IMG/VR virus record: IMGVR_UViG_3300045988_166199 | Span: 9,605-73,604 of that record | Source of the DNA: a virus | Lineage: Duplodnaviria > Heunggongvirae > Uroviricota > Caudoviricetes | Reading direction: 5' to 3' (one strand) | Length of the DNA: 64,000 nt | Shown here: piece after piece, positions 981 through 61,247 of the stretch | Layout of the letters: every line of letters begins with the position of its first letter | Numbering within the stretch: position 1 is the stretch's first letter | Translations under genes and position numbers: made by a program | Notes under the pieces: generated by a model | Databases searched by the model: none | Told to the model about the DNA's origin: nothing | Seen by the model: the letters and a program-made list of their open reading frames with translations, nothing else

Positions 981-1083
981 CTATGCCAACTTCCCAGACA
1001 CATTCCCTTCCGTTTCCACTTCCAAAAACTGCCACCAGTCGCTATCATCCGCTCATTGCAATAAGTAAGTAACTACCTATCAG

Positions 1084-1833
1084 GTGAGCCACATGAGCCA
1101 AATCTTTTTTGATACCATTGACAACGACCAGTACGACTTCATGACAGAGTGGAATACCGCTGTTATGGACAAGTGGGTCGCTGAAAACATTGGTTTGTCG
1201 CGCTGCAATGACGAGGCTGAACTCTTCGAGACGAAGTGGTTTGATTACCGCGACATGCATCCTCTCATGGCCACCTGTCTTTTTACGGAGGCATACAAAC
1301 GTCAGTACTCAAATATCATGCTGACGCACGGTCGCGAACACTTTGAAACAGCTCCGTTCACCACCGGGTTAAAACGCCTGCCTTATCAGGAGTTGTCGAC
1401 TGCCAATAAAACGTCGCTATGGAAAGCACGCCAGTTTGCTGATCGCTATTGCTGTTCATACGACTACTTTATCTCCACGGTTCTTTCCGCAGCTGCACGG
1501 CGTCTGTGGGACAAGTTGCCGCGCCCACAGCATTTATGGCAGCCAGAACTGATTGAGATATTCGAAGAGAAATTATCCAGACGCGCAACAACCCGTCTGG
1601 ATGACTCTCTGGTTAGCTTTAAGCATATGGGAGACATGCAGTTCAACCCGATTCAGGAAAGCTATTTTGAGTGGATTCTGGAGCGTTTGCGCATCATCCC
1701 CCGCAGCAAGCGCATACGCGCAATTTTCTCTGCTATCTGGCTAATGGAAATCGTTCCAGAGCGCCTTATTTCCGCCCACTTTCCAGAAGAACTGGAAGAA
1801 GCACGGCGGTTTATTGATCCCCTATCTAATTAA
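1084..1833 (+). CDS. hypothetical protein (249 aa)
   Basis: ORF preceded by the recurrent TAAGTAAGTAACTACCTATC motif; no recognisable domain. Confidence 0.5.
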   Translation: MSHMSQIFFDTIDNDQYDFMTEWNTAVMDKWVAENIGLSRCNDEAELFETKWFDYRDMHPLMATCLFTEAYKRQYSNIMLTHGREHFETAPFTTGLKRLPYQELSTANKTSLWKARQFADRYCCSYDYFISTVLSAAARRLWDKLPRPQHLWQPELIEIFEEKLSRRATTRLDDSLVSFKHMGDMQFNPIQESYFEWILERLRIIPRSKRIRAIFSAIWLMEIVPERLISAHFPEELEEARRFIDPLSN

Positions 1834-1876
1834 CTAATACTAGAAAACAATTTGTTTAAAAAACAAAGGAAAGCAC

Positions 1877-3217
1877 ATGACCGAACTTTGCCATACAGGA
1901 CGCGGGCTGTCCGAAGAGTTTGATGAAGATTTCCAGAACAGACTGACGGCATATTTTTGTCGTGATCACGAGTTTCTTACTCGTGCGGGAGATCTGGTTG
2001 TGCCTAGCCAATTTGCCAATGCGGCCAATGCCATATTGGTTAATATGGTTTCGGGCTATTACCGTATGTACAAGAGCGCGCCTTCTTCATCTGCGATTCT
2101 GGATATGCTTAAGCGCGCGAAACGCGATAAGACCATCCGTGAGGAACTCTTCCCGGATGTTGTTGCTGCGTTTAAGCGCATCCTTGCAGAAAAATTGTCT
2201 GATACCTCGTACATGGTTGACCAGGTATCCACATTCGCAAAAAGTGTAGCGTTTGATGATGCTCTGATTAAAGCTGCTGAACTGAAAGAGAAGGGCGACT
2301 TTCAGGGGGCGATGGCAATCATGGCCAAGGTTCAGCAGATAGGCTCGAACGAAGCGACCGGAATCTATGACTACTACACCTCCGCAAGTGAGCGATTGAA
2401 AGCGCGTGAATATGAGGCTTCAGAGGAGTATGTGCCAAACAGCATTACAACTGGACTCCCTCTGCTCGATAGGTTGCTGTACCAAAAAGGCTGGGCGAAG
2501 CGTGAAATGGTGCTCTTCATGGGGTTCGCTAAATCCGGCAAATCGACCGCAATGGGTGAGTTTTCCATAAACGCAACGCTTGCTGGCTACAATGTTCTGT
2601 ATCTCTCGCTGGAGGTTCACACCACCATTTTATCCGACCGTTTTGATGCAAGATTGTCGGAGACAGAAATGTCCAAGCTGGTGGAACGGCGCGATGAGGT
2701 TCATCGTAAGTTGGCAGAGTTGGGAGCCACGAAGGGGATTGGTAGTTTGTGGGTGGTTGAGCGTCCGTCAGGAAGTATGTCACCGGCAGATCTGGACCGT
2801 ATGCTTAACAGCATGAAAGCCAACGGCATGGTGCCTGACATGGTTGTTGTCGACTACGCAGATTTGATGCGTGCCAGTTATGACCTTCGTGATGATCGCG
2901 CCAACATTCGTAGTATCTACACCGATTTACGTGCTCTTTATGACAAGCATAACGTTGCTGGTATCACGGCGTCGCAAACAAACCGTGAAGGTGGCGCGTC
3001 AGAAGTTGCCACAATGATGCACGCTGCCGACAACATCGAAAAAGTACGTATTGCTGACCTGGTAATAACGATCAACAAAACCGAAGAAGAAGAAGCGAAA
3101 GGAGAGGCTCGTCTCTACTTTGCTGGTTCGCGTAACCAGCAGGGAGGGATCAGCATTCGCGTTAAACAAAACCTCGAACAAATGCGCTTCATTGAGCGAA
3201 TCTTAGACGTTACCTAA
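1877..3217 (+). CDS. DnaB-like replicative DNA helicase
   Basis: Walker A GFAKSGKST, Walker B-like DMVVVDYADLM, SQTNREG motif typical of DnaB/gp4-family helicases; extended RBS context AAAGGAAAGCACATG; immediately upstream of primase. Confidence 0.75.
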   Translation: MTELCHTGRGLSEEFDEDFQNRLTAYFCRDHEFLTRAGDLVVPSQFANAANAILVNMVSGYYRMYKSAPSSSAILDMLKRAKRDKTIREELFPDVVAAFKRILAEKLSDTSYMVDQVSTFAKSVAFDDALIKAAELKEKGDFQGAMAIMAKVQQIGSNEATGIYDYYTSASERLKAREYEASEEYVPNSITTGLPLLDRLLYQKGWAKREMVLFMGFAKSGKSTAMGEFSINATLAGYNVLYLSLEVHTTILSDRFDARLSETEMSKLVERRDEVHRKLAELGATKGIGSLWVVERPSGSMSPADLDRMLNSMKANGMVPDMVVVDYADLMRASYDLRDDRANIRSIYTDLRALYDKHNVAGITASQTNREGGASEVATMMHAADNIEKVRIADLVITINKTEEEEAKGEARLYFAGSRNQQGGISIRVKQNLEQMRFIERILDVT

Positions 3218-4480: not shown

Positions 4481-5617
4481 ACCAGTATTAGTCACGTACA
4501 CATTGACCGAAAATGATTTAACTTCTGTGTTGAAGTTGTCAGTCATTACCGCGAGGTAGGCATTCTTGGTATCTCTGAATTGCTTCAGGATGATTTGAAC
4601 GTTGTCGGTGCAAACAAACGAGGTAGCCAGATTGCCTCCTTTCTCTGAAAAATCCTTCAGGAAGGTGCAGTCAACTTTGCCATCATTAGCGGTGAAGGTA
4701 GCATCATCACCCTGCCAGGTAAATGTAGCGTTAACGCCCTTATCAATGGATTTAGCAATAAGTCGCTGGGTGGCGGATTTTGTTTTGGCTTTGGAAGCCG
4801 GCGCTCGATATTTGCCGCTTTCTTTCAGTTCTGCAATGTAATCGCAGCCTCTTTTTTCTCCTTTATCGCAAGCAGTCTGATAAAGGTCGGCTGCTTTTTT
4901 ATAGTCCTTTTTTACACCTTCCCCATTCTCATACATAATGCCAAGATTGGTTATGGCGTCGGCGTTTCCAAGTTCCGCTGCCTTTTTATACCACTTAACT
5001 GCTTCTGCATCATTGCGTTTAACGCCTAACCCATCATCGTATAGTATTCCTAATCCTATCATAGCTTCTGAACTGCCTTGGTCTGCCGCCTTTTTGTAAT
5101 AAGTAAAAGCCTTTTTATAATTCTTTTTAACGCCTTTACCATATTGGTAATACGCCCCAAGAACTGAAGTTGCTTTAACATACCCGGCATCAGAGGCTAG
5201 TTTGAAGTATTTAATGGCGAGTGCATGATCTACTTTACCAAGCATCCCCTTTTGATAAATAGCACCAAGATTGTTGTAGGCTCTACCTTCACGAGCATCC
5301 CCCGCAAGTTTGTAGTACTCAACAGCTTTATTTAGGTCTTTATCTACACCCTCGCCAAATGTGTACATAACTCCAAGTGCATAATATGCTACTTTATCTC
5401 CCTTTTCTGCAGCTAGATCAATCCACTTCTTGGCCTCAACTACATCCTTATCAAAACCATTGACACCATCAAAATAATTTGTACCTAACTCACTTTGTGC
5501 TGCGGTATCCCCTGCGGTAGCGGCTTCTATCAGCGTTTGTTTATTGTCTGCGTTAACGAATCCAGAGTTAAAAAGCAAAGTTAATGCCAGCAACGATGAA
5601 GATTTTATGTATTTCAT
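4472..5617 (-). CDS. secreted Sel1-like repeat (SLR) protein
   Basis: N-terminal signal peptide; about 7 tandem Sel1/TPR-like repeats (A.YYLG.MY..G.GV.KD...A..WY.KAA); opposite strand to flanking replication genes. Confidence 0.75.
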   Translation of the reverse strand: MKYIKSSSLLALTLLFNSGFVNADNKQTLIEAATAGDTAAQSELGTNYFDGVNGFDKDVVEAKKWIDLAAEKGDKVAYYALGVMYTFGEGVDKDLNKAVEYYKLAGDAREGRAYNNLGAIYQKGMLGKVDHALAIKYFKLASDAGYVKATSVLGAYYQYGKGVKKNYKKAFTYYKKAADQGSSEAMIGLGILYDDGLGVKRNDAEAVKWYKKAAELGNADAITNLGIMYENGEGVKKDYKKAADLYQTACDKGEKRGCDYIAELKESGKYRAPASKAKTKSATQRLIAKSIDKGVNATFTWQGDDATFTANDGKVDCTFLKDFSEKGGNLATSFVCTDNVQIILKQFRDTKNAYLAVMTDNFNTEVKSFSVNVYVTNTGSN

Positions 5618-6389: not shown

Positions 6390-7172
6390 ATGAAAGAAGA
6401 AATTAAGAGATTAGCCTGCAACATCATTGATAAAACTGGTTTAGAAATCAGCGAGAGCAATCGGCTAGACATCATTGGAAAAGCCGTCAATACGGCAATG
6501 GATCATATCGCCACTCGTTTGGTCGAGATCCCGCTACCGGGGCTACCTTATCTGAAGGTTAAGTTGTGCGTATGGGGCGAACCTGCACATGCACGACGTT
6601 CTGCATTAGTTGTTTTTGTACGCAAAGAAAACTTACGAACTCTAAAAGTGCAGGTTGGGACGTGGTTTGATGGCAGAGTCATCTATACAGATACCATTAT
6701 CTGTCCTCCAGGTGACGAACATATTGAAGCCGTTATTCGAGAATCAATTCGAGCTATGCGTAGTTTAGCTTTGCTGGAAGACAAGCAAAACTTTGAAGAT
6801 TACTTGCTGTCGGTAAAAGCTGAACCAACATTGTCTCTGAAAGCCGATTTCGTCACCCCGACAAATCTGTTGGAGGTTTTGATTAATAAAGGGGCTAATG
6901 ATGCTGTAAATCTAATCAGGGAGAGCGAATATTCGACTCTTTGGGACATGTGCAAAAGCCAGTTGGATCTTGTGCATATCATTGTTGATGCGGGTAAGGC
7001 GTGTGATGGCGTAATGGCGGAATTTGCTGGGAAGATGGTCAGGATTGCTAACGAATTACCGATGATAGAGCAAGAGGCCAAATCATACGCCACCAATCAT
7101 GTCACAGAGCTTCTTGCCCCCTATCGCTTAGAAAGCGATCAGCGCAAGATGATTAGCTGGGGAAGTTGGTAA
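6390..7172 (+). CDS. hypothetical protein (260 aa)
   Basis: ORF with RBS-like ggag upstream; no motif recognised. Confidence 0.5.
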   Translation: MKEEIKRLACNIIDKTGLEISESNRLDIIGKAVNTAMDHIATRLVEIPLPGLPYLKVKLCVWGEPAHARRSALVVFVRKENLRTLKVQVGTWFDGRVIYTDTIICPPGDEHIEAVIRESIRAMRSLALLEDKQNFEDYLLSVKAEPTLSLKADFVTPTNLLEVLINKGANDAVNLIRESEYSTLWDMCKSQLDLVHIIVDAGKACDGVMAEFAGKMVRIANELPMIEQEAKSYATNHVTELLAPYRLESDQRKMISWGSW

Positions 7173-7239
7173 GCTCTCTGTGTGTCGTTTTTTACGCAAA
7201 TAATGATAGGTAAGCACAAGATTATTTCTGGCGGTAATT

Positions 7240-7710
7240 GTGAAAGCTGATTTGTCAAAAATCCCTTCTATTTCAGGAAATAACGGTTATTCACTTCGTT
7301 GTGAGGAAGTAAAGATAAACGGTGAGTCGGCATATTGCAGCTACTCCGTTTGCCAGCACACCATTCTTGCCTTCAAAGAAAACCGTCTTCCTCGAACGTC
7401 TTTCCAGTCGTGCGCAACCGCTATTAAAGCAGGCAAATGCAAGGCGTTAAAAATGATGGTTGAAGAGATTCGTAAAGGAGAATCTCTGTATTACGAAGAT
7501 ATGACCGCACTCATTAAGGAGGTTGAAGAACGGAATAAACAAGCCAGAACTATAAAACGAAAACGTGACAGTGTAACGATTAATAGCATGGTTAAGAAGA
7601 GCGCCACATCACAAACAGCGATCACTGACGTGTATGCGGCGTTGATTGAAGAAACAACAAAAGAAACACATGAGCAAATCGATCAACATATGGAGGCAAA
7701 ACAACAATGA
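7240..7710 (+). CDS. hypothetical protein (156 aa)
   Basis: ORF preceded by GATAGGTAAGCA motif; stop overlaps ligase start. Confidence 0.45.
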   Translation: MKADLSKIPSISGNNGYSLRCEEVKINGESAYCSYSVCQHTILAFKENRLPRTSFQSCATAIKAGKCKALKMMVEEIRKGESLYYEDMTALIKEVEERNKQARTIKRKRDSVTINSMVKKSATSQTAITDVYAALIEETTKETHEQIDQHMEAKQQ

Positions 7711-9677: not shown

Positions 9678-10454
9678 AAATACAATAATAAGTATTTACT
9701 TACCTATCTTTTATGTATAAGATGACTTTGTTTTCGTTGAGACGCGACTGTTTGAACTTAAATACAAGTGCAAACGAAGAAGTCTATCTGGCAGTAGCCT
9801 AATAAGCCAAACACCAGCGAGGTCAGTTTCCAGCCTCGTTACCGAAATGGGACACACTGAGCGAGTGTGATTGCAGAACGCAGGAGGGAACATGAGAGTT
9901 CCCTCCGATGAAGTAACAGAATGGGCGGTCAGTATATTTTCAACTCATATACGACTCCCGGATTCTTAGCCAATGACCGCCCATCCTGTTACGTCATTTT
10001 GTTCAATTATGTCGTTTATACTGGGTTAAAAAGCGGCGACGTAGCCCGGCTGGTATGGTTAGCCAGCACACAACGTTGAGGCCATTACATTTTTATCAAT
10101 TCTAAGGTTCTATTCACAGAGATACCGGCGAGCGTTGATATGTAACATGTTGGGCAAACATTCAATCGGAGTAGTGGCCTCAACGTTGTGAAGACAGGAT
10201 TGTTGTATAGGTTTAACCACTGTTGCCATTAGTGCCTGTTTTCACAACAAATGATTCCATACATCACATTGTATAAATTACAAAGTAGGTGCTGTCCTCA
10301 GAAACATCATCTACTTAAAGATTTTGCCTTCTATTGAGCGAAGTCGAAAACGTCTGGCACTAACGGAAAGTGCCAGTAGCGGTGTGTTTCCTGGCAGAAA
10401 CTAACACCGCCGCGATTGGCACTGTTGAGTAATAAATACTGGCAGTGCTGAATT

Positions 10455-10529
10455 GATGGTGTAGCTCAGCGGTAGAGCAGTTGGCTGTTAACCAACTGGT
10501 CGGTGGTTCGAATCCACCCACCATCGCCA
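10455..10529 (+). tRNA. tRNA-Asn (anticodon GTT)
   Basis: Cloverleaf: acceptor gatggtg/caccatc, anticodon loop ctGTTaa, T-loop ggttcgaatcc, 3' CCA; sequence differs from host asn tRNAs. Confidence 0.8.
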
Positions 10530-10534
10530 ATTTA

Positions 10535-10621
10535 GGGGAGTTAGTCCGTAGAGGTAGCGGGACAGACTGTAAATCTACTGTCATTGCGACTCGGGTGGTT
10601 CGACTCCATCACTCCCCACCA
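10535..10621 (+). tRNA. tRNA-Tyr (anticodon GTA)
   Basis: Acceptor ggggagt/actcccc, anticodon loop ctGTAaa, long variable arm, ggttcgactcc T-loop, CCA. Confidence 0.8.
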
Positions 10622-10625
10622 AATT

Positions 10626-10701
10626 GCCGGTTTAGCTCAGTTGGTAGAGCGCCTGCCTTGTAAGCAGGATGTCAGCGGTTCGAGTCCGTTAACCGGCACC
10701 A
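10626..10701 (+). tRNA. tRNA-Thr (anticodon TGT)
   Basis: Acceptor gccggtt/aaccggc, D-arm tagctcagttggtagagc, anticodon loop ctTGTaa, T-loop ggttcgagtcc, CCA. Confidence 0.75.
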
Positions 10702-10925
10702 ATACAACGATAAGATCATTACGGTTAATCGTCGTTCATGTGCACAATGACTGGTCGAAAGGTAGTGATCTTACCGTTGTGGTGGATTCGCAGACTGATG
10801 CGATAGCTTTCTTGGATGTTAGGGAAATGCGGCCGCAAATCTTCCCTTTCGCGAGCGGTGATCGTCCGTAGTCCTAATTGGCTGCACCGTATGCCGGAGA
10901 TTCAGTACCGGCCACCACAACGGCC

Positions 10926-11012
10926 GGAGAGTAGGGAGCATGGTGCTCAAGCGGTCTTGAAAATCGTCCCATTGTGCAAACGATGATGGTTCGATTCCAT
11001 TACTCTCCGCCA
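10926..11012 (+). tRNA. tRNA-like gene with long variable arm (possibly tRNA-Ser, anticodon TGA; atypical D-arm)
   Basis: Acceptor ggagagt/actctcc, T-loop ggttcgattcc, CCA end; anticodon stem weak and D-loop short, so isotype uncertain. Confidence 0.5.
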
Positions 11013-31865: not shown

Positions 31866-32120
31866 TGGCATTAACACTGGCAGGTCTGGAAATCGAGAAA
31901 ACAAGCGGCTACTGGCGTGCTAAGGGTTCAAGCAGCCTGGCATTCTTGAGCGTCTGGAACGTGAAGATGGGTATATCGTCCACCAGCGGCGTGAATGGCG
32001 TATGTACGATCCAGAAACAGGAAAACTGACTACAAAAGCCGGAACACTTTGGGGTCTGTTGAAGAAAATACACTAAATGCAAACTGACTGCGGCACGTTC
32101 CGCAGTCATATTTCATAGTC

Positions 32121-32657
32121 GTCACCGCTGACAGCATACACAATCAACTGCCGCTGATAGCATATCGAGAGTCTATCTCACCGCTCACAGCATACTTTAC
32201 TCGATTTTTTACCGCTGACAGCATACTTAAGACATTGCATGAATAATGTGTACCGGTATGGGTATAACCAGAACAAAATTACCGCTGGCAGCATACGAAG
32301 GTCTGACATATGCCATTAATTACCGCTGATAGCATATCCAAACAAAAATTCCTCAATAAAACACCGCTGACAGCATACGTTCTATCAGGGGGCAGCAGGC
32401 AATAAATACCTTTCACTACAAGTAATCAACGCAATGGGAATAGAATGTTAGTGAGCGCAAACCTATATGGAATGCACTCTTCGAGGTTAGTAACCACTGG
32501 GGAGGTTTAAAAGAGCATTGAGTGGTGATAGATGATTTACCGCTCACAGCATACGTTTATCTCACTATACCGCTGGTAGCATATCTTTAACCGTTCACAG
32601 CATACTTTTCAGAAAAATAGCCGCTGATAGCATACATTTCACCGCTGACAGCATATC
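32121..32657. repeat. iteron array downstream of rep (about 12 copies of ACCGCTGACAGCATAC-like 16-19 bp repeat in two clusters; incA-like)
   Basis: Copies start near 32124, 32151, 32180, 32211, 32281, 32322, 32363, 32539, 32569, 32590, 32620, 32641. Confidence 0.85.
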
Positions 32658-33750
32658 AAAGTAGTTTGAGACTATTGGAAAGGATCTCAATCATCTTGAT
32701 ATTTTCAGGCGTCAAATTCTGCGAAAGTTCGGTTATCTTATTGATAATGTTCTGTTTGGCATCAATTTCCCCGGCTTTCTCATCTAGTTTTTTGGGTTCG
32801 ATGTCTTCAGGTTTTGGCGGTGCGACTTTGAGTTTTGGATTGCGGCTGTGAATCTGGATATAGATCGACCGCCCTCGCTTAATCTCGCTGTATTCGAGAT
32901 AACCCAAATCTTGGAGAGCTTTTAAGCCGTTGCGTATAGTCTGATTCTGCGAGCTGACATTCCTGCTACTCAAATTGAGTCGCGCACGCAATCGAGCAAG
33001 CGATACCGGCGCAGGCTTGGTTGGAAGACTTTCGATGAAGGTGTACAGAGCCTGTGCTGTTTCTTTGCGTGGTAGCTTATTGATAACCTTTAACTGCAAA
33101 AGAACCTTATGGTCAAAGCGATATAGTTCGGCCAGCTTCGGTTCTGCATAGAACACCACCGTATCTTTCTGCTCGTTGTAGTCCACGCTATTGATGAGGT
33201 GCACCATCAGAAGCGAGATCTTGTTAGAGCCGTCGACGTTCTTTTCTTCATACGTTCTCTGGAAAGACAGAGTTGTACGCATGATCTTCAAAAGACTGTT
33301 TGTAAGCCGGTCGCGGAGTGTTTTGCGGATCTGTGACGATGGATAGCCACAAAACTTCGCAAATTTCGTGATGCTTAACTCGACACGACCGTTAGGTTCG
33401 CCGTATTCTGCCAGCGAACGCACAACGCCCACCCACGTTTTGAAATCATGATCCATGTCCAGGCGAGGACCGGTTATCTTGATATCGGAATAGCCTTCAG
33501 AACGGGCTACTTCGAGCTGGACAAGCTCCTTTGAAGCATCGATCTCATTTGGCTTGTTACGTTTACTGTATTTTGTTCCCTTAAGCGTGGGGACGAACAA
33601 CCCCAGTCGCATCAACGCAATTGGTTGGACTGTATTGTTGCTATTAGGGACAAGTTCCCCTGTGTACAATTCAAGGGAACCTTCTTCAAAGTTGTCGAGA
33701 TTATCTTCTACTTCTTTGTTATTTTTACCTTTTTTATTTTTTGTGGACAT
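32656..33750 (-). CDS. plasmid-type replication initiator (RepA-like, iteron-binding)
   Basis: Gene flanked on both sides by iterons; start placed at internal Met MSTKNKKGK (RBS aaggtg); basic N-terminus; ORF track extends to 33870 across the upstream iterons. Confidence 0.75.
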   Translation of the reverse strand: MSTKNKKGKNNKEVEDNLDNFEEGSLELYTGELVPNSNNTVQPIALMRLGLFVPTLKGTKYSKRNKPNEIDASKELVQLEVARSEGYSDIKITGPRLDMDHDFKTWVGVVRSLAEYGEPNGRVELSITKFAKFCGYPSSQIRKTLRDRLTNSLLKIMRTTLSFQRTYEEKNVDGSNKISLLMVHLINSVDYNEQKDTVVFYAEPKLAELYRFDHKVLLQLKVINKLPRKETAQALYTFIESLPTKPAPVSLARLRARLNLSSRNVSSQNQTIRNGLKALQDLGYLEYSEIKRGRSIYIQIHSRNPKLKVAPPKPEDIEPKKLDEKAGEIDAKQNIINKITELSQNLTPENIKMIEILSNSLKLL

Positions 33751-33770
33751 GTGGACACCTTTGTCATTCA

Positions 33771-33872
33771 ACCGCTGACAGCATACTTGATTTGCCGCTG
33801 GCAGCATACCAAAAACAGTTGGTAGCATACGGCGAACCGTTGACAGACTATCAATTACCGCTGGCAGCATAC
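33771..33872. repeat. origin-proximal iterons (3 good and 2 degenerate copies)
   Basis: accgctgacagcatac (33771), gccgctggcagcatac (33794), accgctggcagcatac (33857), plus degenerate copies. Confidence 0.8.
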
Positions 33873-33911
33873 ATGAACATGGCTTCAGACCAGTCGTGGC
33901 GCGGCTTACAG

Positions 33912-33984
33912 CGATCGGGGATCTTATTTGATCTATACAAGGATCTATCTATGGATCTCTTTATTAGGATCTATCCTGTGGATA
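33912..33984. promoter_or_regulatory. origin-like region: six GATC sites (GGATCT heptamer repeats) plus DnaA-box-like tgtggatat
   Basis: GATC at 33912, 33919, 33929, 33941, 33953, 33967; atatccaca (reverse strand) one mismatch from TTATCCACA; arrangement resembles P1 oriR. Confidence 0.6.
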
Positions 33985-34071
33985 TGTGAATAATTAAAAC
34001 AGGCATTTACTACCTTCGGCGCACCTGGTGGGTTATCGTTGCCTCGGCTAACAATCACAGAAAAATGACAT

Positions 34072-49699: not shown

Positions 49700-49720
49700 T
49701 TTGTTCTGGCGTCTGTAATT

Positions 49721-49785
49721 AGCCTGCTTCTGTATATATAAATAACTACATATTAATTATTATTATACGGAAGCAGGCTGTTTTG
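49721..49785 (+). terminator. long-stem hairpin plus T-run (copy 2 of repeated ~60-bp palindromic element)
   Basis: agcctgcttctgtatatataaata ... tattatacggaagcaggct gtttt; near-identical to 919-980. Confidence 0.6.
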
Positions 49786-49860
49786 TATCAGAGACTCCAG
49801 ACCTGAACATCACTACAGAATCCACTAGAACCCCTTCCCAGACGCTTTAAAATCGATTTT

Positions 49861-50115
49861 ATGAACCACTTTAAGGAAACCAACATGTCATACCCGACTA
49901 ATGTCGTTGCGCTCGTAGAGAGCGATTTTCTGGCCCAGGCTCGTGAAATGATGAAAGATCGTGAGCAGGCTTTCAACTTGTACGAATGGGCAATTAAGTG
50001 CTTGCATCTTGGCGAGCATCGCGAACTTGTTGAACAGCTTTTAGGTGAGTTGATCAATGAGGTGTTTGCCTTGAATGTTCAACTACATGGTCGAGAAAAT
50101 AATCAATCGAAATGA
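49861..50115 (+). CDS. hypothetical protein (84 aa)
   Basis: ORF with RBS aaggaaacc. Confidence 0.4.
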   Translation: MNHFKETNMSYPTNVVALVESDFLAQAREMMKDREQAFNLYEWAIKCLHLGEHRELVEQLLGELINEVFALNVQLHGRENNQSK

Positions 50116-50699
50116 TAGATAAGTACAAACTATTCATAAGATGAATTGTAAGTGCTAAGATCTGATAGTTTCCAGTCGTAGACTGGAGACTCGACCTGAT
50201 GGGTGGAGGTAAGCGTCACTGGCGTCAGGTTTAAAAAAGCTCACTACCAGCGTAGAACCGGTGCCGTTTAGGTGTCGGGGAAGGGGGAACCAAAGTGAGC
50301 GGAGACAAGGGTCACTTTATGATTGTCGAGTCTGGGGTGTTTCGAGAGGTTGAATCCAGTACTCCCCTTCATAAAGTGTGGGAAGATCTCGGTTCTGGGG
50401 TGCTGTCATCCATAACTTCCCAAGTCTAAGCTGGCAGTAGACTTAGACCATAACTTTTCAGGTTATGAAAGGACCAGGTTGGTGAGGGATTTTTATACTC
50501 ACCTCCCTGGGAGAGTATTACCTGAAAAGACAACCTCTCACTTCGTTCGAGGTGAACTTCACTCACTTCGTTCGTTCAGTTCAGGTTTATAAAAACCTGT
50601 TCTGGGAAGTAATTTGTTTATTTTAATAATTATTAACACGCACGCGTGTGCGCACGCGCGAGGAAAAAAATCGGCGCGGCGCTTGATTCAGGAGTTTAT

Positions 50700-51293
50700 A
50701 TGACGACGAAGACACCATCCCGATCGCAAGCAAAAACTCGCAAAAAAGCCAAAAACAAAAATTCTCCCCGCACCAATCCCACAACGCCTGTCGTAGAGTT
50801 CAATCCCCAGCTTAAAACCGTAAAAATCTACAGTGATGGCTCTTGCCTTAAAAATCCGGGTGGCCCGGGCGGTTACGGTATAGTTCTCCAGTATCGTGGT
50901 GAGGAACGCGAGTTCTCAGATGGTTTTCATAGCACCACCAATAACCGCATGGAGATGATGGGGGCACTTATCGGGCTGGAGCGTTTGAAATATCCATGCA
51001 ACGTTATTTTGCACTCTGATAGCCAGTATCTGAAAAACGGCATGACACAGTGGATGAAATGGTGGAAACGTAATGGATGGATGACTTCTGATAAAAAACC
51101 GGTAAAGAATGTTGATCTGTGGAAACGTCTGGATGAGGACGCAAGTCGACATAATGTTCGCTGGAAGTGGGTTAAAGGTCACGCCGGGCATCGTGAAAAT
51201 GAAATATGTGATCGACTCGCGAAGATCGCAGCTTTTTCCGCAGCCGATACGCCTCACAAGAAAGACATTGGTTTTATTTACAACAAGTGGTAA
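50700..51293 (+). CDS. ribonuclease H (RnhA-like) with basic N-terminal extension
   Basis: [17 protein letters not shown], ...[33 protein letters not shown] match the RNase HI fold; start at ATG 50700 after RBS caggag. Confidence 0.85.
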
Positions 51294-51694
51294 GTAAGTG
51301 TTTACCTATCATATTAAATCATGTATCTTATCAGCGTCAGGATGACAATGTGTCGGTAAGACACAGTTCCAGGATGGAACGAGAAAGGCGGCTGGCGATC
51401 GCCAGCCGCAACTCTTTCTGACACTGGATGGAGTCCACATGGCACGTCAAACCTATTTCACTTCTGCAACTAAACGTCCTCGTTCACTACGTCAAATTTT
51501 GGCCGAATTATTTAGCGGTCGTGTTCTGTCACGTCTTGATGAACTGGAGACTACCGTTCGGTTGCTGAATGAACGTTTAGATAAGCAAGCGTCAGTTGTT
51601 GCGAACGTGGGGGCGATTGTTACCTCTGGTTCTTCACACCAAGCGAAAAATGCACGGCCTTTAGTGAAGGAGAAAAACAACAAGGACAGTTCGA

Positions 51695-60121: not shown

Positions 60122-61247
60122 CCACTTATTTCAGGCTTATGTAATTGGCGGTGATTCTACAGCAACTTGGATGCTTTAGCAGTTCGGACATTAGGCAACG
60201 AATGACCTAATTAGAGCTTTTTGGAAAAGCGGTATTGTCGGTGCGATGATAGCTATGTTTGGGTGCGCGATGGTGCAATACAATGACGGTGAAAAGGTAA
60301 GCATCCAGTCTGATGGCTGGTATGGGCTGGATAGCCTGCAAAAAACCGCAGATAAAGCCTGTCAGCAATATGGAAAGTCTAAAGCCGTATATCAGCATAG
60401 CGCGAACGCTAATCCACATCTCGCGCCCGGCACGGGCGTTCAGAACACTATTTGGAAATGCGAACCATAACGCAGGTTGGCTTTTTACATCTTGGGCCGA
60501 ATACTGATTCCGCGCTAAGTTGTTTGTGCGGAAGTGACACTGTGGAGCTTAGAAATAGTAAATACTGGTGGGCAACAAATTGAGCCTTCACACGCTCACC
60601 AGCACACACAAAAAATGGTTAAACAGCAAGGGAGTTAATATCTCATCGCGACATTAAATAAGCCAGCGCACGCCTCTGTTTATCACTGACTTGAAAAACC
60701 ATATCAGAACCACGATGAAGACAATCGCCAGCACTTGGCTAAGAACAGGCGCATTTAAAAATGCACTTAGAAACTGAAAAAATACAATCATCAAGGTAAT
60801 CCTCGTCTAATGTAAAGCTGTGTGCTCTCACGTTGACGTAGAAACCCAACCTCTATATAGTTGGATTCGGTGAAAGAAAGTCGTTAACGTGAACTTACGG
60901 CACATGTTTTCGGTATAAAAATCAGGGAACTGTGAATTCCTTGATGTAGTTGGGGCCTGTAATGCAGGCCCTATCTATTAATGTCATGATTACATCTCAA
61001 ATTTTCTCCTTATCATTATTATTTAATAAAATTCAATTAATATAATATCCATTTCCTGTGTGTGCAAACACAGTATGAGGAAAATGGCCCCGTTGCAAGT
61101 GCATAACTTTGTGGATAACTCTGAAGGCGAATTTACATTTCGGCGCACCGCAAGCCAGATAAGCTGTGCGCAAAAAGCAATGGGGTGAGAAAAAAACTTT
61201 GAAGATATTGCGGCGACTAAATAATAGCCGTTATTCAATTATTCTGG

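Follow-up and report, generated by a model that had tools for sequence, protein, structure and literature searches.

A noncoding stretch of 584 bp (positions 50116 to 50699) lies between the genes for a 76-amino-acid protein, p76, and RNase HI (rnhA) in the viral DNA analyzed here, a 64-kb window from an SSU5-like phage-plasmid. The element in this stretch is strongly supported as encoding a structured plus-strand RNA of ~450 nucleotides (nt), predicted from its sequence to consist of helices P0 to P7 and a candidate pseudoknot, with a fold that has been kept by compensatory evolution. Quite possibly, if short of probably, the element serves as a transcript-dependent, iteron-free replication origin of SSU5-type phage-plasmids that would be used in phage mode (lytic or secondary). 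A preliminary description of the stretch had put forward both a structured noncoding RNA (ncRNA) and a lytic origin. The former is strongly supported by a conserved promoter, a plus-strand bias, and covariation beyond controls. The latter has gained indirect but specific support, in that a hairpin of the element recurs at iteron- and AT-rich origins within initiator genes and the plasmid origin (oriV) lies elsewhere.

A conserved promoter at the edge of the element

The element was compared among 59 distinct relatives (the main clade) and a diverged clade D, which was found by a search with the 269-amino-acid protein encoded 1.2 kb upstream and comprises six viral contigs of ~110 kb (45 to 47% protein identity). 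A diverged element was present in five of the six contigs (nhmmer E values of 1e-51 to 1e-57), and the sixth locus ends early. Identity between the clade D element and the window was 60%, no higher than that of the flanking genes (52 to 66%).

A sigma-70 promoter with an extended -10 element was identified at the 5' edge of the element (Table 1). Positions T50133, T50134, G50152, T50153, T50156, A50157, A50160, T50161, and G50168 were invariant in 59 of 59 sequences; the invariant positions spell TTnAnn, 17 nt, TGnTAnnAT, and a +1 G, and the rest of 50116-50168 was variable, the spacer highly so. The promoter of the Klebsiella lineage reads TTTACA, 17 nt, TAGAAT, without the extended -10 TG; lineages with a weak -35 element retain this TG, and the clade D promoter reads TTTACC, 17 nt, TGcTAACAT. 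A simple promoter scan missed the site because only 8 of 12 positions match. The predicted plus-strand RNA would start at about G50168, the first base of hairpin P0. No minus-strand promoter-like site, of the kind that drives RNA I, was found inside the core.

The transcript is predicted to fold into a conserved structure

RNAalifold analysis of the 59 main-clade sequences yielded 135 pairs, 15 of them with compensatory changes. In this alignment 99.5% of the cells pair, and 234 compensatory cells were counted, versus 75 in shuffles and 2 to 31 in slid controls. The family fold energy was lower for the plus strand than for the minus strand (-141 versus -103 kcal/mol), and G-U accounted for 11.8% of plus-strand pair cells versus 0.2% for A-C. 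When the noncoding region was folded and compared with shuffled sequence, the minimum free energy z-scores were -5.6 for the plus strand and -6.5 for the minus strand. In an alignment of 18 sequences that included clade D, the curated structure of 86 pairs was 97.9% paired, with compensatory changes in 24 of the 86 pairs versus 17.2 +/- 1.8 in shuffles (0 of 500 reached this value) and 0 to 5 in slid controls; an alternative pair set with clade D gave 26 of 103. A helix that RNAalifold placed between the 5' and 3' ends (columns 5-9 with 564-568) was dropped: the transcript is predicted to start downstream of its 5' strand, and the partner of that strand differed between alignments.

The structure of the 5'-terminal hairpin P0 was kept while its sequence was free: at least six different stem sequences were found, all of which pair, with compensatory changes in five of eight pairs and GUCAUU/AAUGGC in clade D. 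P0 is followed by a 5' domain (50193-50378) with P1 to P4 and a central domain (50379-50529) with P5 to P7. Farther along the RNA, P4a was rebuilt with a different sequence in clade D, and P5, P5b, P6, and P7 also changed in sequence there. The duplex of the candidate pseudoknot was predicted at -14.6 kcal/mol in the window and -18.9 kcal/mol in clade D and showed two coordinated changes, G-C to A-U and A-U to G-C. This long-range pairing would form a pseudoknot because one strand lies in the P2 domain and its partner in the P4 domain. Two pairs of mutually exclusive helices were also found. In one, the CAUAACU/GGUUAUG hairpin competes with the outer P7 stem UUUUCAGGU/ACCUGAAAA, and both are conserved or compensated. 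In the other, motif hairpin 1 competes with an invariant 8-bp pairing of AGAGGUUG (50345-52) with CAACCUCU (50531-38), the latter being the 5' strand of that hairpin.

Table 1. Coordinates of the element, its parts, and related features of the window
Feature	Position	Strand	Remarks
p76 gene	49885-50115	+	76 aa, phrog_5343; annotated coding sequence in PhiR41_1 and SSU5
Sigma-70 promoter	50133-50161	+	-35 TTCATA 50133-38, 17-nt spacer, extended -10 TGcTAAGAT 50153-61
P0, 5'-terminal hairpin	50167-50191	+	Structure kept, sequence free
Hairpin CCAGTC-GTA-GACTGG	Within arms 50167-50177 / 50181-50191
P1	50193-50231	+	4 compensatory pairs; clade D CCUGA/UCAGG -> GCAGA/UCUGC
P2	50239-44 / 50295-300	+	3 compensatory pairs; clade D CUCAC/GUGAG -> CCUGU/GCAGG
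P2a, inside P2	50258-78	+	Rebuilt in clade D, GAAA loop
Purine run, inside P2	50277-89	+
G runs	50277-87, 50334-37, 50397-400
Candidate pseudoknot	50280-87 with 50363-70	+	Purine run with UCCCCUUC
P4	50313-22 / 50369-78	+	2 compensatory pairs; changed in clade D
P4a, inside P4	50328-35 / 50356-64	+	Apical loop with invariant AGAGGUUG 50345-52
P5	50379-85 / 50416-22	+	3 compensatory pairs
P5b	50398-402 / 50407-11	+	1 compensatory pair
P6 hairpin	50424-48	+	5 compensatory pairs
CAUAACU/GGUUAUG hairpin	50449-67	+	1 compensatory pair
Outer P7 stem	50455-63 / 50521-29	+	UUUUCAGGU/ACCUGAAAA; compensated in clade D, UUCUGG/CCAGAA
P7 inner stems	50474-78 / 50506-10 and 50481-86 / 50498-503	+	2 compensatory pairs
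GGTGAG / CTCACC arms	50481-86 / 50498-503
Motif hairpin 1	50533-53 (block 50530-50553)	+	ACAA, then ACCUC, loop UCACUUCGUUC, GAGGU
Direct repeat CTCACTTCGTTCG	50537-49 and 50562-74		Spacing 25 nt
Motif hairpin 2	50553-83	+	UGAACU/AGUUCA stem, second UCACUUCGUUC copy in loop at 50563-73
P9 and spacer	50584-50636	+	Small hairpin P9 (variable), conserved CCNNUUCUGGG, AT-rich spacer 50610-36
AT-rich tract	50610-36
Alternating GC tract	50637-60
GC tract and A run	50637-50685	+	Alternating purine/pyrimidine GC tract CACGCACGCGTGTGCGCACGCGCG, AGG, seven-A run, TCGGCGCGGCGC
rnhA (RNase HI)	50700-51293	+	Pfam RNase_H 2e-44, catalytic residues intact
repA (Rep_3 family)	32659-33870	-
Iterons (n=15)	32119-32657 and 33766-33873		Core ACCGCTGACAGCATAC; flank repA
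DnaA-box-like sites (n=2)	33977-33993		Adjacent to each other

The 3' module combines origin-type hairpins with an AT-rich tract

Promoter, folded RNA, origin-type hairpins, AT-rich tract, and palindrome follow one another in this order in the element, which lies inside a module of replication genes. Both hairpins of the 3' module carry the loop UCACUNCGUUC. In the 18 sequences the blocks 50530-42 and 50544-52 of hairpin 1 were invariant, and the longest block invariant in both clades, ACAACCUCUCACUNCGUUCGAGG, lies at this hairpin. Hairpin 2 showed two to three compensatory pairs, with GAAACC/GGUUUC and the loop UCACAUUCGUUC in clade D. The sequence GAAAAGACAA precedes the two hairpins, and the AT-rich spacer and GC palindrome follow them, an arrangement of an A/T tract and then an inverted repeat. 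In the spacer segment, identity fell to 0.70 and indels reached ~15 nt, with AT richness kept in every lineage, including clade D. The GC tract can form a GC-rich hairpin or a DNA palindrome and was conserved with transitions and even-length indels; in clade D only GCGCGAG(G/A)A is left.

The hairpin recurs in unrelated phages

An exact-pattern scan of IMG/VR with CCTCTCACTNCGTTCGAGG returned at least 119 loci, and 117 new loci were examined. At least 51 of the 117 were not SSU5-like, against a chance expectation of one or two, and these represent at least 10 distinct, unrelated contexts in uncultivated phages. Across these loci the loop was constant (11 nt, UCACU(A/U)CGUUC), and the CCUC/GAGG stem was lengthened by 0 to 28 pairs whose sequences were unrelated yet complementary, including G-U pairs.

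Among the matches listed, six contexts place the hairpin right after iterons and an A-rich tract, and five of these lie inside an initiator gene, where the hairpin occupies the central linker after iteron-like repeats and a purine- or A-rich tract. These coding contexts include loci L238 and L252 (Pfam Phage_rep_O, 2.5e-27, followed by a DnaC/IstB-like gene; repeat GGCTCAAAATGAGCC), L321 (an O-like initiator; five copies of the repeat GCGCGACAC), L263, L251, and L302 ("replication initiation protein"; repeat CAGTGAG), and L271 ("replication initiation protein"; repeat GTACGGAA). The hairpin was in the sense orientation to the initiator open reading frame (ORF) in all five coding contexts and always in the same frame, encoding P-L-T-(T/S)-F-E in a low-complexity linker (L238, L252, L263, L271, and L321). 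In the L244 type, represented by at least 36 contigs, the motif is intergenic and present in two copies, which follow six or seven GATAACACAC/CATCAACACAC repeats and an 80% AT tract. The L244, L315, L325, and L336 types carry the motif outside coding sequence, as does the SSU5 element. At L263-type loci CGTGCGCGCACGAAAGGAA comes right after the motif hairpin; its likeness to the GC tract was noted by eye and is not statistically supported.

Searches with Rfam at the motif in 12 other loci gave no match. Among GenBank phages, 12 SSU5-like records were the only ones with the motif, and the L245- and L238-type origins had no counterpart. The origin-associated hairpin appears to be undescribed in the literature.

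Several further loci were observed. One contig with L244-type flanks, L328, carries the 11-nt loop inverted relative to the stems (~2234-2252); this flip, seen in a single contig, could be a true inversion at a palindrome or a misassembly. Loci L285, L331, and L352 (for example, L352 at 6988-7537, motif orientation) have a 550-bp GC-rich intergenic region beside a thyX-like gene, with a 28-bp extended motif hairpin that includes five G-U pairs and is preceded by the G-rich GAUGG(A/C)UGGUUGG, a run similar to the invariant UGGGUGG in P1 (50200-06). Such a region may be a further large structured element with a function of the same type. In L325, GAUGGGGUGGG was found 25 nt upstream of the hairpin.

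Conservation and distribution of the element

Conservation in relatives, whose absence the preliminary description had listed among its refuting conditions, was borne out: the element is the most conserved stretch of the locus relative to SSU5, at 94 to 96% identity. In a 23-kb alignment with SSU5, the seven best-conserved 200-nt windows all fell within 50201-50700, at 91.5 to 96.5% identity versus a locus median of 77.5%. Among five relatives the core was 91 to 98% identical, versus 70 to 80% for neighboring genes. Over the 59 distinct relatives, the core (50196-50615) showed 88 to 100% identity per 20-nt bin, with some blocks invariant and the flanks variable; the RNase H protein of the same genomes was 76 to 82% identical, its N-terminal tail evolving fast.

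The element region matched Escherichia coli plasmid NZ_CP073997.1 at 100% identity and the Escherichia phages PhiR41_1, Cyrano, and CMS-2020a at 97 to 98%; for Salmonella phage SSU5, for pHCM2, and for many plasmids of Klebsiella, Enterobacter, and Citrobacter the identity was 86 to 92%. Copies were found in 687 plasmids of PLSDB, and 232 of the 5426 complete E. coli genomes carried one, nearly always on plasmids of ~110 kb. The search of these genomes found 234 places, every one of them the element itself and 232 of them on plasmids, with no similarity to the chromosome of E. coli. Genomes and metagenomes scanned for exact patterns yielded only close relatives (at least 86% identity), a Buttiauxella remnant, and random matches. 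The range is narrow, namely SSU5-type phage-plasmids of the Enterobacteriaceae. The remnant, apparently chromosomal, lies at 4780-5165 of locus L093 (Buttiauxella gaviniae ATCC 51604, NZ_LXEP01000001.1), where a metallophosphoesterase-like ORF leads directly into a copy of the element's 3' two-thirds (91% identical) that breaks off within the GC tract beside a LysR regulator and a transporter gene.

The stretch has no conserved coding frame and matches no known RNA family

The preliminary description had singled out this stretch as the longest one without an ORF of at least 60 amino acids. That is so if it is measured to the real RNase H start at ATG 50700, which has a Shine-Dalgarno sequence (AGGAG, 50690-94); because this is the true start, the noncoding stretch is 584 bp. 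The ORF that begins at GTG 50646 merely extends RNase H upstream in the same frame. By the measure of no ORF of at least 60 amino acids, the gap is 50116-50645 (530 bp), exceeded only by 32110-32655 (546 bp), which is the iteron field of repA. Another such stretch of 515 bp was noted at 60508-61022. The hairpins, G runs, direct repeat, AT tract, and GC palindrome reported earlier were all found in place (Table 1). The repeat core TCACTNCGTTC occurs nowhere else in the 64 kb, and no repeats or complementarity of 12 nt or more were found between the element and the rest of the window.

No conserved protein-coding gene was found here, and no short ORF frame was kept across lineages because indels of 1 to 2 nt shift every frame in at least one lineage. 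The only ORFs intact across lineages were trivial ones inside invariant blocks, none of them hydrophobic or preceded by a Shine-Dalgarno sequence. No iterons were found in the element, its sole direct repeat being the 13-nt motif present twice. Nor was a DnaA-box cluster found: there were two one-mismatch matches in the element, both at variable positions, and 70 such matches across the window versus 66 expected.

The covariance-model scan suggested earlier was carried out and returned no relevant family at gathering or permissive thresholds. Rfam 15, applied to 49700-50900 with E values of up to 10, gave only chance matches to microRNA and hepatitis C virus families, and a scan of the whole window gave three tRNA matches and nothing else. 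A tRNA cluster (Asn-GTT, Tyr-GTA, Thr-TGT, and Ser-TGA) lies at 10455-11012 and adjoins a 466-bp ORF-free gap at 9894-10359. RefSeq annotates nothing at the element, and no description of it was found in the literature on SSU5, pHCM2, phage-plasmid ncRNAs and origins, or the motif sequence. A preprint on phage-plasmid heteroresistance deals with another family and with RepA. No Rfam family, GenBank annotation, or paper was found that describes the element. The RNA is a new family, strongly supported by sequence comparison.

Gene neighborhood and the plasmid-mode origin

The element lies in a plus-strand DNA metabolism module that encodes the Pol III alpha subunit, NrdAB, ThyA, DHFR, an epsilon-like exonuclease, a methylase, and RNase HI. 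The plasmid-mode oriV is RepA with its iterons at 32.1 to 34.0 kb, away from the element; the element was rejected as the plasmid oriV because RepA and its iterons lie at 32 to 34 kb. GC skew tracked the direction of transcription and was uninformative about the position of an origin; the 5' half of the element is G-rich, with a GC skew of 0.28 to 0.46.

The gene for p76 (PHROG match, 5.8e-53; no Pfam match) is the only one that adjoins the element in both clades, a homologue with 61 to 64% identity lying directly upstream of the element in clade D. An AlphaFold2 model predicts a helical bundle for p76, with no significant PDB match (none below E = 2). Downstream, RNase HI begins with a basic, fast-evolving tail of 40 amino acids, and distant RNase H loci were not syntenic. 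The link to RNase H implied by the preliminary description has been weakened, as clade D keeps the element with a different downstream gene that has its own promoter, and no RNase H was found in the clade D flanks examined. In three IMG/VR contigs (3300011640_000018, 3300045988_175175, and 2740892278_000002), ~2 kb with two ORFs (238 and 323 amino acids) lies between the element and the 3' half of rnhA, at about positions 1000-3000. On the basis of this insertion and the other gene in clade D, the site just 3' of the element behaves as a slot for variable cargo. Two other IMG/VR contigs (3300029577_000167 and 2534681663_000013) keep rnhA, from about codon 23, without the element. They are deletion derivatives in which the repA region, part of the 34.9-35.2 kb gene, a RuvC-like gene, and rnhA are joined, without ~15 kb of replication genes.

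A probable terminator, consisting of a long hairpin (49716-49790) whose loop is AT-rich and which GTTTTGT follows, was noted after the methylase gene, and a terminator-like 9-bp GC hairpin was noted after rnhA (51388-51409). These two hairpins bracket a short unit of p76, the RNA element, and rnhA.

Comparison with known replication systems and large RNAs

Like ColE1, the element has a promoter ~440 to 520 nt upstream of an AT-rich/GC region, a long, structured, primer-like transcript with alternative foldings, a G-rich 5' half, and, in the main clade, an adjacent RNase HI gene. Unlike ColE1, it coexists with a RepA/iteron origin, its linkage to RNase H is lost in clade D, and it shows no sequence or Rfam similarity, no match to RNAI (RF00106), and no antisense promoter.

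The 3' module, with its A-rich run, hairpin, and AT-rich tract, matches the post-iteron part of lambda-type origins in O genes, as seen in L238, L252, L321, L263, and L271 and in the intergenic L244 type, with an identical loop in the same orientation to transcription. The element differs from these in having neither iterons nor an initiator gene, in place of which it has a promoter and a 350-nt RNA domain. The lambda ori lies inside gene O, in the same position as the hairpin in the initiator genes; to our knowledge, lambda's own ori palindrome does not contain this loop.

Extrachromosomal mycobacteriophage prophages depend on a noncoding RNA region, in place of RepA, for their replication (Wetzel et al. 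2020, PMC7157519), and such RNA-based prophage origins and ColE1 RNA II are precedents for an RNA-driven origin (PMC7157519). The element resembles them as an RNA-based replication region of a phage kept as a plasmid. The mycobacteriophage regions differ in serving prophage maintenance beside parABS, whereas the element would be a second origin beside RepA; they are unrelated to it in sequence and belong to other hosts and other types of phage.

T4 oriF and oriG, the T7 primary origin, and mitochondrial OH likewise combine a promoter, a region where transcript becomes primer, a downstream AT-rich tract, and G-rich RNA, but their transcripts are short and not elaborately folded, and we know of no conserved hairpin-loop signal in them. 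The sso elements, G4-type and phiX-type ssi sites, and Frpo of the F plasmid share with the element orientation-specific folds of 100 to 330 nt with loop motifs read by host priming enzymes. They differ in acting as single-stranded DNA, whereas the element has a double-stranded promoter at its 5' edge, and we know of no sequence similarity between them and the element. The large RNAs OLE, ROOL, GOLLD, and raiA are similar in size (hundreds of nucleotides), multihelix pseudoknotted fold, conserved loops, and phage or mobile-element context; the element differs in its lack of an Rfam match to any of them, its narrow range, and its link to an origin-type motif.

Proposed mechanism and alternative explanations

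We propose that transcription through the element would open the DNA, that the folded transcript would make a persistent RNA-DNA hybrid near the AT-rich tract, or both, much as at ColE1 with its RNA II, at the T4 and T7 origins, or at mitochondrial OH. The RNA 3' end, possibly trimmed by RNase HI, would then prime leading-strand synthesis, and the hairpin loop, on the displaced nontemplate strand or on the RNA, would be shown to a conserved priming or helicase-loading factor, the same factor that iteron origins may use after an initiator protein has melted the DNA. A folding switch, with CAACCUCU/AGAGGUUG set against hairpin 1 and the CAUAAC hairpin against the outer P7 stem, may decide whether the transcript is origin active. 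In its strongest form, which we think possible but on balance unlikely, the RNA would replace the initiator protein: a 450-nt pseudoknotted transcript acting in cis would open and prime the origin and hand it over to the host replisome via the UCACUNCGUUC loop.

Several points weigh against an origin at this site. We infer transcription, R-loop formation, and initiation at the element from its sequence. Iterons, DnaA boxes, an RNA I-like antisense promoter, and ColE1 homology are lacking; no canonical terminator or defined RNA 3' end was found at the element; and the ~350 nt of elaborate, conserved 5' structure seem to exceed the apparent needs of a simple primer. The different downstream gene and the absence of RNase H from the examined flanks in clade D count on the same side. 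The other hairpin loci, moreover, would be origins by likeness to lambda and by architecture, and in initiator genes a peptide constraint may add to the nucleic acid constraint, making the hairpin a dual signal. In L315 and L325 the hairpin is antisense to neighboring genes and is followed by a canonical same-strand terminator, so that it looks like part of a small RNA gene and not an origin.

A trans-acting, free-standing large ncRNA, perhaps in a ribonucleoprotein with p76 or a host protein and with its loops as protein-binding sites, is a tenable but rather doubtful alternative. Such an RNA may be a decoy that titrates the origin-hairpin factor of competing phages, or it may have another function in host takeover or maintenance from the plasmid state. 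The conserved promoter of its own, the protective 5' hairpin, the complex pseudoknotted fold with many invariant loop nucleotides, and a size and conservation pattern like those of large ncRNAs of unknown function all favor it, as do the linkage to p76 that is kept while the downstream gene varies and the apparent small RNA genes of L315 and L325. It is disfavored by the missing terminator and 3' end, by the absence of complementarity of at least 12 nt elsewhere in the window, by a p76 model without a recognizable RNA-binding fold, and by the recurrence of the hairpin at iteron/AT-rich regions in initiator genes, which points to a replication role in cis. We regard as improbable a DNA-only element, either an sso/ssi-like single-strand origin or priming signal or a protein-bound origin with a folded, displaced plus strand, to which the transcript would be incidental. 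Strand-specific structure with G-T wobbles would also fit folded single-stranded DNA, the hairpin lies on the nontemplate strand at the origins of other phages, and the sso elements of rolling-circle plasmids are 130 to 300 nt long and orientation specific, with conserved loop motifs. Yet in each clade the 5' boundary of the structure coincides precisely with a canonical double-stranded sigma-70 promoter, whose -35 and extended -10 strengths compensate one another, and there is no sign that this double-stranded DNA phage exposes 450 nt of single strand for long.

That the element is a cis-regulatory 5' leader of rnhA, acting by attenuation or translational control, is quite improbable. The two share a strand, no convincing terminator precedes rnhA, a GC hairpin precedes the Shine-Dalgarno sequence by 15 nt, and the terminator-like hairpin follows the gene. 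The element is not the rnhA leader because clade D, which largely refutes this idea, keeps it before a different gene with its own promoter, because 2 kb separate it from rnhA in three contigs (L073 to L075), and because rnhA persists without it in two others (L064 and L065); a leader would also be far more conserved here than the gene that it supposedly regulates. Least probable of all are a packaging site and a locus with a hidden small protein or a type I toxin-antitoxin system, for which a conserved noncoding region in a phage and the structured, plasmid-borne hok-like mRNAs of also ~400 nt might speak. The pac/cos-type site of the preliminary description found no support, since, in the record coordinates inspected, no terminus maps here, and PQ492289, the one phage record that starts nearby, begins at the p76 ATG without a terminal repeat. 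A hidden coding gene or type I toxin was rejected, as indels break the frames and there is no conserved hydrophobic ORF, antisense promoter, or Rfam match of the Sok type.

Implications for SSU5-type phage-plasmids

Independently of a role as an origin, the element defines a new family of large structured RNA with two candidate conformational switches that is suited to structural work. The hairpin loop that it has in common with iteron origins of unrelated uncultivated phages points to an unrecognized general component of phage origins, and the binding partner of this hairpin, once found, could show how DNA melted by an initiator passes to the host replisome. If the RNA does act as the initiator, the hairpin would be a new, widespread recognition element of phage origins and a possible docking site for a priming factor or helicase loader, and the SSU5 RNA made from the plasmid state might also decoy rival phages that rely on this signal. 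Should the element prove to be an origin, it would be unusual in its size, its fold, and a signal common to protein-initiated origins. SSU5-type phage-plasmids are common in clinical Enterobacteriaceae and carry resistance genes; an origin used in phage mode would provide a handle on their switch from plasmid to lytic replication, as well as a compact cis element for vectors.

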